Made by a program: the position numbers and the translations under genes
Shown: one piece after another, positions 11,301 to 25,270 of the stretch
Position numbering within the stretch: position 1 is the stretch's first letter
How the letters are laid out: each line of letters starts with the position of its first letter
DNA from: an uncultured Gammaproteobacteria bacterium
GTDB lineage: Bacteria > Pseudomonadota > Gammaproteobacteria > Xanthomonadales > Rhodanobacteraceae
Direction: 5' to 3'
DNA: 64,000 nucleotides
NCBI GenBank assembly: GCA_963824525.1
Contig: CAWGPI010000004.1
Coordinates: 458,222-522,221 of the forward strand
The notes under the pieces: generated by a model
Database searches by the model: none
What the model saw: the letters and a program-made list of their open reading frames with translations, nothing else
Told to the model about the DNA's origin: nothing

Positions 11301-12034
11301 TCCAGCCATTGCTGTCGTGCGGCGGCTTCAGCCGCGCTCAGTGCTTCGACGCCGCGAGTGAATTCACTGAGCGCGCGTGGGGGATCGGGCAGTGGCCTGC
11401 CATCCAGGCGCAAGCTTTGCAGCGGCTGGCGGAGCAGGGGGCGCAGCGCCTTCAGCAGCGAGGGCGGATCTTTCCACCAGTGCGAGGCGACCGCCGCACC
11501 GTGGCGGTCGAGTGGGAAGAAGTACGTGCGCCAGTAATCACGGACAGCTTCGGCGAGCAGCTCGCTTTCGTCGATCCCGGTGTCCTGCACGAAAGCGTGG
11601 CCGCTATCGAAGGCGTGTTGGCCAAGCATGCGCTGGCACCAGGCATGAATGGTGTGGATAGCCGCTTCGTCCATCCACTGCGCGGCCAGCTCGAGTTGCC
11701 TGGCGGCGCTTGCGCGCGCATCAGCATCGGGATAGGCAGCGATGAGTTCGCGCAGGAAGTCATCGGACGCGCGATCGTGACGGAACGCCTCGGCGGCTTC
11801 GCTCAGGCGTTCGCGAATGCGCTCGCGCAACTCGGCCGTGGCTGCCTTGGTAAAGGTGAGCACCAGGATCTGGGCAGGCAGCAATGGCTCGCCGTCAATG
11901 CGGCCGTGACCCAGCACGAGGCGCAGATATAGCGCTGCGATGGTCCACGTCTTGCCCGTGCCTGCGCTCGCCTCGATGAGCTGGATGTCGTAAAGCGGCA
12001 ACTGCAGTGGTTGGAGCGGTGCGCTGGTGCTCAC
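8375..12034 (-). CDS. recB: Exodeoxyribonuclease V beta subunit
   Basis: EASAGTGKT, DEFQDTD, TIHKSKGLEY, nuclease GFIDL...IDYKSN; GTG at 12034 overlaps the recC stop (GTGA). Confidence 0.97.
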   Translation of the reverse strand: MSTSAPLQPLQLPLYDIQLIEASAGTGKTWTIAALYLRLVLGHGRIDGEPLLPAQILVLTFTKAATAELRERIRERLSEAAEAFRHDRASDDFLRELIAAYPDADARASAARQLELAAQWMDEAAIHTIHAWCQRMLGQHAFDSGHAFVQDTGIDESELLAEAVRDYWRTYFFPLDRHGAAVASHWWKDPPSLLKALRPLLRQPLQSLRLDGRPLPDPPRALSEFTRGVEALSAAEAAARQQWLENVEPIETMFAVALESGALNGNKMRREKVVAELALLRQWSLGLADASETLPRYTQSALAAAKNKNAAPLIHDAFVAVEACATTQKSLAALQATMLAHAATWVAQRLEHTKQRRAQLGFDDMLKRLDDALHSHAGARLADTIATQYPIALIDEFQDTDPLQWRIFRRIYAGRASTGLLLIGDPKQAIYGFRGADIHTYLRARATAQQPTWTLDTNYRSTRALVSAVNRIFEHADTHAEGAFGFGHGSSALPFHPVAARGRSDRLVLDGQPLPPMQLAVEDRPETISASAYVDLMARHAAAYLVQLLTAAADGRCGFMGQDDQITPLKPGDIAILVRNGTEAARVRAEMQRRGLKSVYLSDRDSVYASAEAADLLRWLQACADPGSDRSMRAALATPTLGQSDAALDRLNLDEHHWEACGERFRQLHVTWQRHGVLAMLHDLLHAFDLPAHLLAQPDGERALTNLLHLAELLQHAAASLDGDHALIRYLAAQMATAVDPLADTAEEQIVRLESEAALIKVVTIHKSKGLEYPLVLLPFICSAREVKREDSFLWHDAEGEPQMDLRADDAARALADRERLQEDLRLLYVALTRARYACWLGIAGVGGARTTPLHKSAFGHVLSGGEAIQPGELMHRLDTLRGGHPDLSIETLLQPEQHLLKTSEGDITPLWDARTYTGGAQERWWVASYSSLKYAEGELVSISAPETATQDVLVELGNEQPAMAEFLPTHAQGMHAFHAGAEAGTFLHDLLEWAADEGFAAIADDASGLEKEIARRCQRRGWQADIPLLSRWMPAMLRTPLALPDGASASLAGVDGYYAEMEFWFEAQHVDTLALDRLVTEHSLNGQSRTPLLPERINGLLKGFIDLIVEYQGRYYVIDYKSNKLGNDASAYTPTAMRESILRERYDLQYAIYTLALHRQLRARLPGYDYDRHMGGVAYLYLRGIDGAGHGVHQERLPRALIDAMDRLFATGAHAHAA

Positions 12035-15000
12035 GCGAGGTCTCCCAGCGAGGCAACATCCATCAGGGGGCGATAGAGCTCCAGCCACGCCGTAAATCCC
12101 GCGGCTTCCATGCGGGCGAAGCTTGGCCACGCGCGAGCGAGGCAGGCGTCCTCCTCGACTTCGCCGGGAATCTGGCTGAAGCCGCTGCCTTCGTAGGCGA
12201 GTTCGGCCTGCTTGCGGGCCTTGTTCTCGTCCTGGGCATGCTGCAGCCAGGCATACGCGGCCTTGCGGGCGATCGGCAACGGCGCGTTCATGCCTTCGCG
12301 CAGTGCTGCCAGCAGGTGGTTGGTCCAGGCAACCGCTTCGGCTTTATCCAGAACGCGAAGCATCACTTGCGCATCCGCGCCAATGACGCGCGTCTGCAGG
12401 CGCAGGCCGTGGGCGTGAGCAAGCAGGTGGATCAGCCAGGCGCCGATCAGCTTGTCATGGCGAAGACCACCATCCTTTTGCCGCAGTTTTCCGGAGGCAA
12501 GCTCCAGGCGAACGAAGGCTGTCTCGTCACCCACACGCAGATCAGTCAGCCAGTCCTCGATGCCGACACCGTGCGCGGTGTACTGCAGCTCGATCTTGTC
12601 GGCAGCCTGCGGCCAGCGCCGGCAGGCCGCCAGCCAGGTGGCGGCGAGTTCACGGGTGTCCCGCGCCAAGGTCTCGCGCAGCAGTTCGCCGAATCCGCCG
12701 GGCGGCAGCGAGCCTTGTTCGGCGAGGTGGCGTGCGGCAAGGTCGACGGCTTGGCCGGCATCGTCCGCCTGCACGGCAGCACGTAGCACGGTCGCGTTGG
12801 CGACGTGGCGCTCCAGCGCGTTCAGCGCGAACGGCTCGGCATTGGCGGCTTCCTCTTCCAACTCGGTGAAGTGCACCTTCAGGCGGTGGTTGAAGAAGAA
12901 GCGCACCGGCCGGTTGAGGAAGCTTTGCAATTGGCCGATGCCGAGCCCGGCATCCGGCTCCCATTTCGCCAACGCGTTGTCGGCATGTGTAGCGATATGA
13001 GTGCGATGGGCCTGCCGCCATTCGCGCGCATAGGTGAATACATGCGTCTGCGTATCGGCGCTGAAGTATCGCCGGCTGAACGGTTGCAGGGGGTGCTCCG
13101 TCGTCATGGCCTGCATGAGCGCTTTGCCGGTCGAGGCGTCGTTTGCGTCATCGCCGTGGCGATGCCAGCCGGCGGCGACGTAGTCGCGCAGTTGGCCCAC
13201 GAGCACGGAGGGTGGCAGTACGCTGTTGTCGCGCACGTTGCGGCCCACCCAGCTGATGTACAGCGCATCGCGCGCGGAGATCAGCGCCTCGAGGAACAGG
13301 TAGCGGTCGTCTTCGCGACGGGATCGGTCGCCGGGCCGCGCGTGGCCGGGCTGCGCCATCAGGTCGAAGTCGACCGGCGCCTGGCGCCGCGGGTAATCGC
13401 CATCGTTCATGCCCAGCAGACACACCACGCGGAACGGAATGGCCCGCATCGGCATCAGCGTACCGAAGCTCACCGCGCCGCCCATGAAGCGTTGCGAGAG
13501 GCGGCTTTCATCGATCGCCTCGAGCCAATGCTCGCGCACGATGGCAAGTGGAATGGGCTGCGTAAATGCCGCGTCCGTGCAAGCTTGCTGCCAGGCGTCG
13601 AGCGCATCGCCCAGGCGTGCCAGTCGATCGCTGTCGGCCGCATCGTCGGCCGCGAAGAAGTCGCCGAGCAGCGCCTGTAGACGCTCATGCCACTGGGCCG
13701 GCGCGGCCGGTTCGCGCAGCAACTGCCAGTAGCGTTCCAGTTGATCGAAAAGCTCGGTGATCGGGCCAATCATGGCCGCGTCCAGCCCGCCCACTTCATC
13801 GTAGGGTGCGATGCCTTGCCAGGTGTCGGCATCGCCCGCGGCATAGCCGAGCAGCATGCGCTGCAGGCCGAAGCGCCAGCTGTTCTGCTCGATGCCGGGC
13901 AAGTCGAGGCTCTGCTTCTGCCTGCCGTGCAGGCCCCAGCGAATGCCGGAGCCTTCGATCCAGCGTCTCAGCGTGGGCAGTCCAGCCTCGTCGATGTCGA
14001 AGCGTGCTCGCAACGCAGGCACATCGAGCAGATCCAGCACATCGCTCACCGCGAAGCGCGAGTCTGGCAGCGAGAGCAAGTGCTCCAGCGCCACCATCAA
14101 AGGCACTGCACCACGCGACGGTTGGTCGGCCAGGGAGTAGGGCAAGTGGCGCGGGTCGTCGGGGGGCACCCTGCCAAATACTGCCTGCACATGCGGGGCG
14201 TAGGTCTGGATATCGGGCACCATCACGATCACGTCGCGCGGCGACAATGGGGTGCCTCGGCGGCGCGCGTCCTCGAACATCGCCAGCAGCTGGTCGTGGA
14301 GAATTTCCACTTCGCGCTGCGCACTGTGGGCGACGTGAAATCGCAATGAAGCATCGCCAGGGTGCCACGCCTTGCGTTGCGACGGCTGGGGCGGCAGCGG
14401 CTCCAGATCGAGAATGGCGTGCTGGATCTGACACAACAGCGTATCGCCATCGGTATCGGCGAACAGGTCGATGCTGCGGTTCCAGGCGGCGAAGCGCTGG
14501 CGATAACCCTCAGGCTTGTCGAAGGCGTCGAGTAGCCGAATGTAGTCGCGGCCCTGGCGGCCCCAGGCGGCCAGCAGTGGATTGGCGTGTAGATGGAGGT
14601 CTTCGTAGCGTGGCTCGGCCGGTAGGCCCGGCTTTCCGGCATGGCGCCGCTGGTGGGCCTTGAGCAGTTCGCGGTCCTCGATGATGTCGGCCCAGTAGTG
14701 GCGGCAGGGGTTGGCCACCAGCAGCATCACCTGACTGAAACGGGCCAGGGCGGTCAGTGCCTCGAGCGTCTGCTGCGGCAGCGAGGATATGCCGAACACC
14801 ACGATGCGTCGCGGCAAGGAGGCAGGCCGCGAAGTCATGCTGCCGATGCGATCGAGGAAGGCATGGTGGACCGCCGCGCGATGGTTGCGCCGTTCCTCAC
14901 CCACGTCGTCCAATACCAGCTGCCACAGCCGGGCCTGCCAGCGCTGGTCATCGCCCAACGGCGTATGGCGGTTGCGCAGGTCGTCGCGGAGTTGATAGCG

Positions 15001-15519
15001 GCCTTGTTCCCAATCGGCGAGCCAGTCGGCGCGATAGACCTGGTATTGGTCGAACAGATCGGCCACCCGCTCGGCGAGTTGGAAGCGCTTGCGTTCGTCC
15101 GGGTCGTCGCGGAGAAAATCGCGCAGCGGGGCGAAATCGGTTTCGTGCAGGTGTTCGGGCAGCAGTCGCAACAGTCGCCACGCCAGGCGCGATTTGTCGA
15201 ACGGCGAGGTGGTGGGCACCGCTTCGCGGCCCAGTACGCTGCGATAAGCCGCCCATAGAAACCGACCAGGCAGCTGCACGTCGATCGCGGCACTGATGCC
15301 GAGACCACCGTGGTCCGTCGGACGAGCCAGTGCCCATTTCAGCCACTGCGCGATGCCGTTGCTCTGCACCAGCATCAGCTCGTCTTCCAGCGGGCGTAGC
15401 GGCGCACGGGCCAGCCAGGCCGTCAGAAGGTCACGCAGGTCCTCCATGCGATTGCCATGGATAACCATCAGGCCCGGTTCGACGGGCGATTCAAGAGGCA
15501 AGTCCAGGGTGTGGCTCAC
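12031..15519 (-). CDS. recC: Exodeoxyribonuclease V gamma subunit (start placed at GTG 15519; ORF open to 15639)
   Basis: IHGNRMEDL, LVQSNGIAQWL, ANPCRHYW, REVEILHD, HPLQPF; upstream of recB. Confidence 0.95.
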   Translation of the reverse strand: MSHTLDLPLESPVEPGLMVIHGNRMEDLRDLLTAWLARAPLRPLEDELMLVQSNGIAQWLKWALARPTDHGGLGISAAIDVQLPGRFLWAAYRSVLGREAVPTTSPFDKSRLAWRLLRLLPEHLHETDFAPLRDFLRDDPDERKRFQLAERVADLFDQYQVYRADWLADWEQGRYQLRDDLRNRHTPLGDDQRWQARLWQLVLDDVGEERRNHRAAVHHAFLDRIGSMTSRPASLPRRIVVFGISSLPQQTLEALTALARFSQVMLLVANPCRHYWADIIEDRELLKAHQRRHAGKPGLPAEPRYEDLHLHANPLLAAWGRQGRDYIRLLDAFDKPEGYRQRFAAWNRSIDLFADTDGDTLLCQIQHAILDLEPLPPQPSQRKAWHPGDASLRFHVAHSAQREVEILHDQLLAMFEDARRRGTPLSPRDVIVMVPDIQTYAPHVQAVFGRVPPDDPRHLPYSLADQPSRGAVPLMVALEHLLSLPDSRFAVSDVLDLLDVPALRARFDIDEAGLPTLRRWIEGSGIRWGLHGRQKQSLDLPGIEQNSWRFGLQRMLLGYAAGDADTWQGIAPYDEVGGLDAAMIGPITELFDQLERYWQLLREPAAPAQWHERLQALLGDFFAADDAADSDRLARLGDALDAWQQACTDAAFTQPIPLAIVREHWLEAIDESRLSQRFMGGAVSFGTLMPMRAIPFRVVCLLGMNDGDYPRRQAPVDFDLMAQPGHARPGDRSRREDDRYLFLEALISARDALYISWVGRNVRDNSVLPPSVLVGQLRDYVAAGWHRHGDDANDASTGKALMQAMTTEHPLQPFSRRYFSADTQTHVFTYAREWRQAHRTHIATHADNALAKWEPDAGLGIGQLQSFLNRPVRFFFNHRLKVHFTELEEEAANAEPFALNALERHVANATVLRAAVQADDAGQAVDLAARHLAEQGSLPPGGFGELLRETLARDTRELAATWLAACRRWPQAADKIELQYTAHGVGIEDWLTDLRVGDETAFVRLELASGKLRQKDGGLRHDKLIGAWLIHLLAHAHGLRLQTRVIGADAQVMLRVLDKAEAVAWTNHLLAALREGMNAPLPIARKAAYAWLQHAQDENKARKQAELAYEGSGFSQIPGEVEEDACLARAWPSFARMEAAGFTAWLELYRPLMDVASLGDLA

Positions 15520-15813
15520 GGTAGGCAGGGGGCGGCTTTGCTCATGGGGGCATTCTCGCCGAGCGGCTGGAGGAAGTCCCGCATCCTGCCCGTTTGCTTT
15601 CTCACCGAGCGAGAAAGCAGCAGGCCTGGCGGGGAGCAACGCCTTGCCGCCCGGCGCGTGCAGTTGATCGCGTCAAGGCAAGCATCGGTACGGCGACTTG
15701 GCGTGCCGGCTTCTGCCCATCCAGCACGAGGGGTTTTACGTGATTTCAGATAAGTCTTATGGAGGCGGTCAGTGGCGTGCCGCACACTTGCGCCCAGCCT
15801 TACGAGAGTGATG

Positions 15814-16090
15814 CCGGGTCAGGCGGCTCTGACCCGGGGCGGTCAGCCCTCGGTGTGGTGGCGAGTTTCAAGGAGCCTCCTGCAAAGGGGGAGCGTGCCG
15901 CGAGGCACGCGCCAGGGTCCGTAACGGAGTGCGGACGCGCAGGGTGGCCATCCGTCCAGGAGGGACGGCCCACCCAATTTCCCAGCGCGCTGGAATGGCT
16001 ACACATGAGTCCGGCTCCCTGAGCATCCCTGTGCATGACCACGATCGTTCTGGTGGTCGATCCATCGAGCCCTGCCACGGCTCACCTTCG
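15814..16090. ncRNA. Candidate multi-branch structured non-coding RNA (family not recognised; + strand slightly favoured)
   Basis: Consecutive stems: CCGGGTCAG/CTGACCCGG (15814-37); closing stem TCAAGGAGCC/GGCTCCCTGA (15868-77/16013-22) enclosing TCCT-GCAA-AGGG, GCGTGCC-GCGA-GGCACGC, GTCCGTA-ACGGAG-TGCGGAC, GGGTGG..CCGTCC-AGGAG-GGACGG..CCACCC and CCAG-CGCG-CTGG; then GACCAC/GTGGTC (16037-58). No credible ORF. Confidence 0.55.
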
Positions 16091-16189
16091 TCGATGCGAT
16101 ACGCATGCGTCGATTTAGAAACGTCGTCGTTCAGCTCGGGGCGATGCCTCCGGGGGGCGGTGCTTTGAACACCGCGCGCCCGGGCTCGG

Positions 16190-16642
16190 TCAGTTGCGCA
16201 ACGTGACCGCCGGCATGTCGACCATGCTTGCCACCACGCTGGCTCCGGCCATCGATCGATCGGCACGTTCCAGCGCACTGCATGCCGATTCGGCGGCGTA
16301 GCGCATGAGATAGGCGAGGTGCGCGCGATACTGCGAACCGATGCCGTGGGCGCGGATCATGCCGGCAGCTTCGGCCAGGCATTCGAGATCAGAGTAGGCC
16401 CGATCCAGGTCGGTACTGATGGAGCACTGCGCGAAAGCGTGGGCAACGGCGGCGTCATGCAGGCGGGCGCCGACCACGTCCTCTACCAGCTTGGCTGCCT
16501 GGCGCGCGGCGAACACCAGTACGTCGGCGGCCGCATGCGAGAGTTCGCTGTCGGACACCGCGCGGTCTGTCAGTTCTACCAAGCTGCGCGTGACCGTAAG
16601 CAGTTGCGTCACGGGATACGCCGTAGCGTCGCTCTGACTCAT
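16190..16642 (-). CDS. Hypothetical alpha-helical protein (~150 aa) with internal repeat
   Basis: Ala/Leu-rich protein-like composition; GGGGGA/GGGA upstream of ATG 16642; no family motif recognised. Confidence 0.7.
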   Translation of the reverse strand: MSQSDATAYPVTQLLTVTRSLVELTDRAVSDSELSHAAADVLVFAARQAAKLVEDVVGARLHDAAVAHAFAQCSISTDLDRAYSDLECLAEAAGMIRAHGIGSQYRAHLAYLMRYAAESACSALERADRSMAGASVVASMVDMPAVTLRN

Positions 16643-17033
16643 GATCCCGATCCCCCCGGAGAAATTGATCGCGCATTCTCCACCGAGGCGGGCCATTTGT
16701 GTATCGGAAAATTCGGTCAATCAGCCGGAGGTGGGTGATGGCCCGAGGGCCGCGGGCCAGACACGCTGGCGCAGGAGCCCCACGTTGCCCCGAGTCGGCC
16801 GCGTGGCTTGCCGCTGAAGCCTTGGCCCTGTCTGGGCGGTCAATGGCTTTCGTAAATTCGATAGCTGGCTTCAATCGGAGGACGGTGCGTACCGGCGGGG
16901 CGGGCCTGGTGGGCCGCAAGCAGGAACGCTTGGTTGTGGATGACATCCGGTCCAGCGAGAGGCTGGACCGGATGTCGTCTAACGTGGCGGGCACGCGTTC
17001 GGGCGGCCGGAAGGCAGGCGAGACCGCGCTTGG

Positions 17034-19302
17034 CTAGATTTGCTGGGCTGCCACTCGGCCCAGCTTCACGCGGGACCGCCCAAGCAGCTTCAGCGCAAAG
17101 GTCGCCAGGCAAACGACGCCCAGGGTGAACACGATGTCGCCGGGAACGCGCAGCCAGACGAAGGCCTGCATGAGCGGGGAGTGCACGACCTCAGGCGAAC
17201 GCGCATACCACAGGCCGTATTCCACGCTCGTCCAGGCCTGGTAGATACCCGAAGGCACCAGGGACAGGAAGACCATCATGGCCAGGCCGATATTGAGCAG
17301 CCAGAACATCGGCTTCAGCCACCCGTCGGACCAGTTCCCGCTCGGCGCCAGGCCGCGCAGGCAGAACAACGTCAGGCCGATGCCAAGCATGCCGTAGACG
17401 CCGAACAGGGCCGCATGGCCGTGCGCGGGGGTCAGGTTCAGGCCTTGCACGTAGTACAGCGAAATGGGCGGATTGATGGTGAAACCAAGCAGGCCGGCGC
17501 CCGACTGTGTTCCAGAAGCCTACGGCGATGAAACACAGGATGGTCCACTTGTACGAAGCGACCCATGGCGCCGCCTTGCTGCGCTGATAGTTGCGATAAC
17601 CCTCAAAACCCACGAGGGCCAGCGGCACGACTTCGAGCGCAGAGAACATCGCGCCGAACGCGATCACCGCGGTGGGCGTGCCGGTGAAGTAGAGGTGGTG
17701 CAGGGTGCCGAGAATGCCGCCGAACAGGAACACGATGGTTTCGAGCACGATCGCCGTGTTCGCCGTTGCTGCGCGGATCAGGCCAAGGCGCGAGAAGATA
17801 AGCGCAATGACCGCGGTGGCGAAGACCTCGAAGAAACCTTCCACCCACAGGTGAACCAGCCACCAGCGCCAGTACTCGATCATGGAGTAGTGCGTGCGTT
17901 CTCCCCAGACCAGGGAGGTCGCGTAGAACAGGCCGATGCAGGTGGCGGCGACGAAGACCATGGCGATCAAGCCCCGGCTTTCCGATGGACGCATCAGTGC
18001 GGGCCACAAGGCGCGACCCATCAGCAAGAGCCAGAACATCAGGCCGATAAACAACAGGATTTGCCATACACGCCCCATGCTGGTGTACGCCAGGCCCTGG
18101 TTGCCGAACCAGAACGCGTAGTGGAAGCCCAACTTCTGCATGGTGCCGATCCAGCCGCAAAGCAGCGAGCCGACCACGACAAAGACCAGCGCGCCAAGCA
18201 GCACGTTGACACCGAGCCGTTGGTATTTCGGCTCATGCCCCGAGAGTGCCGGGCCGATATACAAGCCGGTGGCCAACCATGCGGTAGCGATCCACAGCAC
18301 CGCCAGCTGGGTATGAATCGTTCTGCTGGCGACGAAAGGAAGGATCGAGGCCAACGGAATGCCGAAGAAGCTCTGTCCTTCCACCGCGTAGTGGGCGGTG
18401 ATCACGCCCATGGAAATTTGCAGCAGCATGAGAGCGATCACGACGTAGAAGTACTTCATCGTTGCGCGCATGGAAGGGGTCGGCTTCAGGTCGAACAGCG
18501 GGTCCGATTTAGGTGCCACGGGATCGGTTTCTTCATGATGCGTCACGTGATACCAGACCATGCCGGCGATGCAGGCGATCAGGCCGATGATGCTGGCGAT
18601 GGACCACATGCCATTGGCGGTGCTGGGGACGTTGTCGACCAACGGCTCGTGCGGCCAGTTGCTGGTGTACGACAGATGCGCTTCGCCGGGGCGGTTGGTC
18701 ACGGCCGACCAGGATGACCAGAAGAAGAACGCGGGCAGGGCTTGCAGATCCTCGGCTTGCGTCAGCGAGCCGGGCATCATCGCGTACTGCTCGCGCAGCT
18801 TGTCCAGGGCCGGGTCATTGCCGAACAGCCCTTCGTAGTGGCGAGCCACTTCTTCAACCGCGGCGGCTCGATCGGCGCTTAGCGTCAGCGTGCCTGTGGC
18901 ACTGTCGTAAGTATTGGCGCGCATCACGGTCTTTAGCCGATGGCCGAGTGCGCCTTGCTCTTCCGCGTCGAGCTGGTCGAACGACGCGTCATGGCGTTGT
19001 TGCGCCCAGAGCTCGCGAAGCGAGAGCGCTTCCCGGTGCAGCCAGTCGGCGGACCAGTCGGGCGCGATATAGCTGCCGTGGCCCCACACGGTGCCCAACT
19101 GCTGGCCGCCCGCCTGAAACCAGGCTTGCTGGCCTCGCTCGATCTGTTCGCCAGTAAAGATCACCCGGCCATCGGGCGCCACCACCTGCTTGGGAATGGG
19201 GGGCGCTGCCAGGTAGATTTCTCGCCCAAGCCATCCCAGGACGGCGAAGGACGCAAAGAACATGATGGCGAGCCAGCGCCACAGTTTCCGCGTGGATTGC
19301 AT
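17034..19302 (-). CDS. norZ: Quinol-dependent nitric oxide reductase (qNor), one apparent frameshift near 17501
   Basis: GTVWGHGSYIAPDWSADWLHRE, YTSNWP, WWLVHLWVEGFFEVFAT, GTLHH, AHGHAALFGVYG; an extra C in the run at 17500-17502 breaks FWNTVG|AGLLGFTINPP. Confidence 0.93.
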
Positions 19303-24425: not shown

Positions 24426-24616
24426 GGCTGTGCATCCTTCGCGTCGGCATCTACCTTCGAATGCTCACTGGCCGACTCATCTTCCATCGGAAGCTCCGCC
24501 ATTCGCGAGAATGCTTTCTTATGACGACCGCTCCATGCCCATGCCCAGATGCAGATGAAGGTAAACATCATCACGACGATGATCACGCCCGTGAGGTGAC
24601 CCCAGATCTCGTTCAT
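24422..24616 (-). CDS. ccoQ: cbb3 oxidase subunit IV
   Basis: One TM helix then [14 protein letters not shown]; between ccoO and ccoP. Confidence 0.85.
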
Positions 24617-25270
24617 GGCTCGCCTCCGTCGCTGGCCGCTTGGCCGTTCGCCGCCGCCGTCGGTTCGTTCTTGACGCCCAGACCTTGCAGGTAGGCGACC
24701 AGGGCATCCAGTTCCGTCTTGTCCTTGAGTGCGTCGGGTGCACTGGCGATATCGGCGTCGTTATACGGGTCGCCAAGTTTGCGCAGGCCGCGCATGCGCG
24801 CCTGGATGTCGGCGGCATCGAGCTTGGTTTCCGCCAGCCACGGATAGCCAGGCATATTGGATTGCGGCACGACCTTGCGCGGATCCATCAGGTGCAACTG
24901 GTGCCACTGGTCGGAATACTTGCCGCCGACGCGGGCGAGGTCGGGTCCGGTGCGCTTGGAGCCCCACTGGAAGGGCCGGTCGTACACCGACTCCTCGGCG
25001 ATGGAATAATGACCATAGCGCTCGGTTTCGGCGCGCAGCGCGCGGATCATCTGCGAATGGCAGAGATAGCAACCCTCGCGCACGTAGACATCGCGGCCGG
25101 CCAGGCGCAGCGGGTCGTAAGGCTTGACCCCCAGCGGCGCCCTGACCGAATGGGCTTCCATGAACAGCGGCGTGATCTCGGCAAGTCCGCCGATGCGACA
25201 CCATGACGGCGGTGAGGACACCAAGCAGCGCCGCGTGTTTCTCGATCATTTCGAAATGTTTGTAGGCCAT
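24613..25270 (-). CDS. ccoO: cbb3 oxidase subunit II, one apparent frameshift near 25196
   Basis: [33 protein letters not shown]; N-terminus [11 protein letters not shown] lies in another frame. Confidence 0.92.

Follow-up and report, generated by a model that had tools for sequence, protein, structure and literature searches.

A Dyella unit of promoter-like elements and hairpins beside recC, predicted to give a small RNA with RsmA-type GGA loops

The DNA analysed was a stretch of 64,000 nt (the window), in which the region between recC and a gene for a 154-aa protein was studied (Table 1). The named relatives of the 154-aa protein were all from Dyella, and through them the host genome was taken to belong to this genus. 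The protein was present in 27 of 28 Dyella genomes (G005 gave no match), had distant paralogues at near 30% identity, and matched no Pfam or NCBIfam family significantly. Between the two genes a single-copy unit was delineated on the plus strand, composed of a palindromic box, a 23-nt gap, a −10-like hexamer and a 5' hairpin, with or without a module of four hairpins.

Table 1. Features of the recC-adjacent region and of related repeat sites (window positions unless a contig is named)
Feature	Position	Strand	Remark
recC	12031–15519	−	Divergent neighbour, outside the RNA unit
Palindromic activator-type box, TCAGATAAGTCTTA	15746–15759	+	Fits the RcsB consensus TN(G/A)GAN4TC(T/C)NA
−10-like hexamer CACACT	15783–15788	+	23 nt after the box; placed by comparison of copies
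5' hairpin domain	15798–15861	+	Genus-wide; degenerate and remodelled here; contains the 9-bp hairpin 15814–15837
Four-hairpin module	15866–15977
Linker GGA (AAGGAG)	15870–15875	+	Possible third RsmA site; read from the alignment
Hairpin A	15876–15891	+	GCAA loop here; loop varies among copies
Hairpin B	15894–15909	+	Tetraloop GCGA; both-side changes in 3 of 6 pairs
Hairpin C	15917–15936	+	ANGGAN hexaloop ACGGAG at 15924–15929, predicted RsmA site 1; both-side changes in 5 of 7 pairs
Hairpin D	15942–15975	+	Two stacked stems, AGGAG loop at 15958–15962, predicted RsmA site 2; both-side changes in 4 of 6 inner pairs
Weakly conserved tail	15978–16090	+	Holds the 3' strand of the closing helix; from comparison of relatives
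154-aa protein gene	16190–16654	−	Convergent neighbour, synteny anchor
Repeat sites with ANGGAU-type loops	G000 C1:373055, C7:646238–646359, C5:57388, C4:666957–667197

The initial annotation had described about 280 nt as a single multi-branch RNA closed by a 10-bp helix. The stems it listed were found in the sequence: the closing helix (15868–15877/16013–16022) paired at 9 of 10 positions, the 9-bp hairpin was perfect, and the GCAA and GCGA tetraloops, the ACGGAG and AGGAG loops, and the outer GTGGC/GCCAC and GGTG/CACC complements were all present. Compared with dinucleotide shuffles, the fold of the whole 277 nt was no better than chance, with z-scores of −1.20 on the plus strand (31 of 200 shuffles as good) and −1.53 on the minus strand (14 of 200). 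A core at about 15867–15977 stood out, with z-scores of −3.5 and −2.3 on the plus and minus strands, respectively. Identity of the core to the four closest relatives was 90–93%, versus 73–78% at recC third positions and 68–73% in the adjacent spacer. In the tail it was 65–80%, near the neutral level, and this tail holds one strand of the closing helix as well as the minus-strand GGA loops. The single closed fold was given up on this account; its closing helix kept only 8, 6, 7 and 8 of 10 pairs in the four relatives. Similarly, the 9-bp hairpin kept 8, 3, 4 and 4 of its 9 pairs, indicating local remodelling. Of three GGA hairpins proposed on the minus strand, the first was a full hairpin in one of the four relatives, and the other two kept stem and GGA loop in none. 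The preference for the plus strand was supported by the ratio of G-U to A-C cells (73:5 and 17:4). The idea of an undescribed structured RNA with RsmA-type GGA loops thus stood on conservation above recC third positions and on compensatory stem changes in the module, with an extent that was smaller and began earlier than proposed. That proposal had overlooked the most widely kept parts of the unit: its promoter box, its −10 element and the 5' hairpin found across the genus.

To sample the genus, about 6 kb beside the anchor gene was taken from 27 other genomes, with the whole contig used for G005. By blastn the region was matched in 4 of 27 same-genus genomes. The box, −10 element and hairpin (about 65 nt) were found in 26 of 28 genomes, all except G017 and G026, with the 23-nt spacing being part of the search pattern and the palindrome-bearing match kept at loci with two. 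The four-hairpin module was intact in 10 of 28 genomes (hereafter the long copies), of which five are close kin, leaving about six lineages. It was missing or decayed in 16 of the 26 copies, and decayed copies (L187, G007) kept the stem of hairpin C with the GGA lost. Among 15 metagenomic anchor-gene loci the unit was present in nine, with one cut by a contig end, and none of the nine had an intact GGA module. In a midpoint-rooted tree of the anchor gene, with 27 rows (none from G005) and 11 of 24 inner branches left open, long copies were placed on several deep branches; G011 was sister to three decayed copies (98/91), and the clade of the present genome was sister to two genomes lacking the unit (94/87). 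This distribution suggests that the long form may be ancestral and was lost several times. Beyond the genus, blastn against 300 family genomes gave strong matches only within Dyella, and models R2 and R3, each run on 150 family genomes, gave only weak partial matches of 19–25 bits in other genera. A hairpin D pattern found 11 matches in the GTDB collection, and the four clearly unrelated ones were without the rest of the module; a loose box pattern matched other genera near the control level. No second copy was found in the host genome (best other profile match E 1.9), phages gave no match, and plasmids gave five short chance matches. The element matched no Rfam model, either in the window or at 20 related loci; for the window copy this includes the models of RNase P, tmRNA, SRP, 6S, riboswitches and introns. 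Judged by these sequence comparisons, the unit is real, uncatalogued and restricted to Dyella so far, and it falls outside the known Csr/Rsm families.

In the module, hairpins B to D had 92% of cells paired and both-side changes at 12 of 25 pairs; none of 500 shuffles scored as high and slid controls reached 36–44%, figures that count as support rather than probabilities, since the controls ignore kinship and the structures were hand-drawn from the same alignments. Hairpin A was left out of this count because it was misaligned. Its GCAA loop was kept in only two of nine other long copies; the GCGA position of hairpin B was a GNRA loop in five of ten copies and GCCA in four. The loop of hairpin C read ACGGAG, AUGGAG, AGGGAU or AGGGAA, matching ANGGAN in all ten long copies, and hairpin D showed an A(G)GGA loop in all ten, while the stems of both hairpins changed. 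The letters of both loops differed at N positions only. The linker GGA occurred in eight of ten long copies, with an unpaired probability that varied with the fold window. By a stem-closed ANGGA hairpin test, defined after the sequences had been seen, each long copy contained two sites and the 16 others none or one; among 44,461 windows of 200 nt across the genome, 205 had two or more such sites. ANGGA hexaloops were mildly enriched genome-wide, at 0.6% versus 0.3–0.45% for control words. In the single-sequence ensemble for this genome the second GGA was partly paired (unpaired 1.0, 0.2, 0.19), and the open-loop form of hairpin D, at −19.7 kcal/mol versus −20.0 kcal/mol for the MFE, was 0.3 kcal/mol above the minimum. 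Through its two conserved ANGGA loops, the module would probably bind RsmA (CsrA). The proposed sponge function was retained as plausible for the two ANGGA loops in ten of ten long copies, and weakened by the loss or decay of the module in 16 of 26.

Of the 26 copies of the box, 13 (all ten long copies among them) agreed with the RcsB consensus given in PMC7913699 without a mismatch, three had one mismatch, and the ten short copies had three. One of its base pairs was changed on both sides. CACAAT, CACACT or a one-letter variant was found in all 26 copies at 23 nt, the spacing set in the search pattern. The E. coli rprA promoter has TACTAT as its hexamer, with the RcsB site 23 nt ahead of it and the RNA start 7 nt beyond it; because this layout is shared, transcription of the Dyella unit is predicted to start near 15795. 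A generic promoter scan found no promoter, and the −10 element is known from comparison of copies. No intrinsic terminator was found in 15400–17200. Across this genome, 4 of 74 oriented consensus sites had a −10-like hexamer at 23 nt, compared to 0–2 at other spacings, which is a weak signal. Other boxes of this kind were recorded at G000 C4:15783 (+), C4:71770 (−) and C7:77766 (−); one precedes a TonB-dependent receptor, another lies ahead of a protein that matched an Ig-like domain weakly, and such boxes may possibly define a regulon.

Candidate protein partners of the unit are encoded by the host. The host csrA product scored above the NCBIfam cut-off and was nearly identical to solved CsrA proteins. 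An RcsB-like protein had a recognition helix, LNRSVKTISRQK, almost identical to that of RcsB, LNRSIKTISSQK, and scored 146 bits, under the RcsB cut-off of 235. Its gene is divergent from that of a hybrid kinase of about 1,480 codons (G000 C7:259919–265159; L255, L156) with SBP_bac_3, PAS, HisKA and receiver domains, and an RcsB-consensus box lies between the two genes. RcsB-like relatives were present in 28 of 28 genomes; G026 has a close relative and lacks the RNA, and G013 has the RNA with a relative of only 43%. A GacA-like regulator also had relatives in all 28 genomes and scored 218 bits versus a cut-off of 280. Co-change of its recognition helix with the box type was considered and rejected, the helix being invariant in all of the 27 genomes, of 28, that were compared. 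The activator of the unit is more likely than not RcsB-like; a GacA-like activator is a distinctly weaker candidate, and some other regulator weaker still.

Based on these results, it is very probable that a structured RNA is made from the unit, and we infer that the plus strand is transcribed as a small non-coding RNA that would sequester RsmA. In the mechanism we propose, a signal would lead a phosphorylated RcsB-like dimer to occupy the box and drive synthesis of the plus-strand RNA. An RsmA dimer would then be held on loops C and D, perhaps together with the linker GGA, and be drawn off its mRNA targets, relieving RsmA control. With two stem-closed sites and a linker GGA, each RNA would take up about one RsmA dimer, which makes it a low-capacity antagonist rather than a sponge of CsrB size. 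The whole reading, a likely RcsB-type-activated small RNA acting as an RsmA decoy through two ANGGA loops, we regard as an even bet. The further idea that Gac/Rsm was rewired in Dyella, so that the RcsB-like protein and hybrid sensor kinase, not GacA, drive a dedicated, independently transcribed two-domain RNA that sequesters RsmA, is tentative and less likely than not.

The 5' hairpin bears on the most serious alternative to the decoy reading. Treated in the same way as the module and with the same limits, it had 90% of cells paired and both-side changes at 9 of 26 pairs, with none of 500 shuffles as high and slid controls at 26–53%. Twenty of 26 copies were aligned, leaving out the clade of five that includes this genome, and G024, as too diverged; the window copy scored 14.5 bits with model R2 and was still the top match of its locus. 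The loop GCCU(A/G)GG was nearly invariant in the 20 copies. Ten short copies and G016 have GGA in the loop of this hairpin instead, which may compensate for the module or be incidental. It is conceivable, at rather low probability, that this hairpin is the functional core, as a base-pairing or protein-binding small RNA under RprA-like control, to which the GGA module adds an accessory RsmA site for stability or tuning. Of the 28 genomes, 26 have the promoter and the hairpin and only ten the module, the loop is near invariant, and the promoter geometry is that of rprA. Moreover, the base-pairing RNAs McaS and GadY, which have two GGA motifs, are reported to bind CsrA in PMC7652899. These RNAs resemble the Dyella unit in combining two or more GGA motifs with a further domain, and differ in showing no sequence match to it. 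Against a hairpin core, the hairpin has eroded in the clade of this genome (68–85% identity) whereas the module is conserved (90–93%), and a U-rich terminator was not found.

The genes around the unit were compared for a role as a leader. A gene for a Sel1-like secreted protein lies on the same strand and 3' of the unit in 16 of 26 copies. Conserved promoter-like motifs of its own accompany it; gene and motifs are missing in this genome (window about 16170–16190) and present in close relatives. The unit occurs without an upstream membrane-protein gene (530 aa, no Pfam family) in ten of 26 copies, and without the Sel1-like gene in nine of 26, including this genome; one further contig ends at the start of this gene. 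In the long copies G000, G011 and G021 the Sel1-like gene is absent and both GGA loops are kept, and G017 and G026 keep the gene without the unit. Since unit and gene each persist alone, a stand-alone RNA gene is favoured over a leader or 3' UTR. A reading of the unit as a long 5' leader through which RsmA regulates the Sel1-like gene, left over in this genome, is accordingly improbable, even with the same-strand arrangement in most copies, the lack of a terminator found in this genome, and the binding of CsrA to two leader sites in flhDC as described in PMC7652899. Control of recC as the main role of the box was rejected because other genes intervene in 16 of 26 copies.

Repeats in this genome resemble the module in their loops. 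Hexaloops of the form ANGGAU and tetraloops that are GCCA or GNRA are found in REP-type repeats, without detectable homology to the module. Inverted repeats of the REP type that include cargo hairpins, and a tandem repeat of five units, have ANGGAU-type loops; they occurred in many copies (Table 1) and could bind RsmA on mRNAs. A GGA-rich element of about 380 nt (G000 C4, about 344400–344780) had terminal inverted repeats and was MITE-like. A classical multi-GGA sponge elsewhere in the genome was sought and rejected, the clusters being repeats, an insertion-like element or coding DNA. The loops of these repeats and the repeated loss or decay of the module would fit a hairpin cassette, portable or derived from repeats, in which the GGA loops were inherited rather than selected for RsmA. 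Its single copy, constant place and compensating stems around fixed loops, with no convincing copy outside the genus, make this origin slightly less probable than a leader. Chance stems in GC-rich intergenic DNA or in a small ORF are a very improbable explanation: the whole-region z-scores were not significant and no Rfam model matched, against which stand covariation, conservation above third positions and fixed promoter geometry, and a small protein was rejected as one-base indels leave no reading frame or length common to the copies.

The decoy reading was compared with known systems. CsrB/Rsm-type sponges contain many repeated GGA sites, about five or more, and CsrB and RsmX/Y/Z end in an intrinsic terminator. 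The Dyella unit differs in having two stem-closed sites with one linker GGA, an extra long 5' hairpin, and no intrinsic terminator found. It is like CsrB/CsrC and RsmX/RsmY/RsmZ (Rfam clan CL00106) in short hairpins exposing ANGGA and in the presence of CsrA in the host, and display of ANGGA in hairpin loops is reported for CsrA antagonists and sponges in PMC7366521. The Rfam Csr/Rsm models had no match on the element, even with E values as high as 10 allowed, and the sole RsmV match (E 2.4, L064:292–497) ended before the predicted start of that copy. By hand count, 10 of the 14 letters of the palindromic box recur in the central part of the UvrY site of E. coli csrB. That site is centred at −183 according to PMC4682653, whereas the Dyella box adjoins the −35 region, spans about −49 to −36, and is an exact match to RcsB, better than to UvrY. 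RprA of E. coli is alike in an RcsB-type box 23 nt before the −10 element, directly upstream of a small RNA. The Dyella unit differs from it in having a GGA-loop module and no Rfam match, visible sequence likeness or U-rich terminator. Xanthomonas campestris, the source of RsmU, and Dyella belong to the same bacterial order. RsmU (sRX061) is described in PMC7694677 as cut from the comEA 3' UTR, with a terminator and no promoter of its own, and as having three to four GGA motifs, no Rfam family and a range of one genus. The GGA motifs, lack of an Rfam family and single-genus range are shared by the Dyella unit, which has its own promoter-like elements and other neighbours (recC, the 530-aa protein, the Sel1-like gene and the 154-aa gene versus comEA).

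In xanthomonads, RsmA is reported to control virulence, motility and secretion, and CsrB, RsmY and RsmZ homologues are reported to be lacking (PMC3300014, PMC7694677). A literature search, with few subscription papers covered, did not find Dyella, CsrA and a small RNA together. Nor did it show, among the papers listed, a stand-alone Rsm RNA for the order; the only xanthomonad RsmA antagonist found in this search was the mRNA-derived RsmU. If the rewired cascade proves real, the order would have its first RsmA antagonist encoded by a separate gene; the sponge module of this RNA could be lost while the 5' hairpin retains another task. An antagonist made from its own promoter in a relative of the xanthomonads, under RcsB-like control, would reveal a way of turning RsmA off that needs no canonical Gac/Rsm RNA. 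The reach is limited to one genus, and that of the GGA part to about one third of its genomes. The unit also defines a new family of RNA marked by a conserved 5' hairpin.

Three minor observations were made at these loci. Loci L051, L053, L063, L068, L054 and L062 of relatives carried tRNA genes and SymR-like matches upstream of the 154-aa gene; at 54 and 41 bits, these matches did not reach the gathering score of 61. The NorB-like gene (17034–19302) and the cytochrome oxidase subunit gene (24613–25270), both on the minus strand, each appeared split over two overlapping frames; these splits are possibly assembly indels, and single-base differences in this genome are to be read with care. On the minus strand at 15516–15545, a nine-codon ORF (MSKAAPCLP*) has a stop overlapping the recC GTG start and follows a conserved hairpin in 21 of 28 loci; translational coupling with recC, or an N-terminal extension in the recC frame, is possible.
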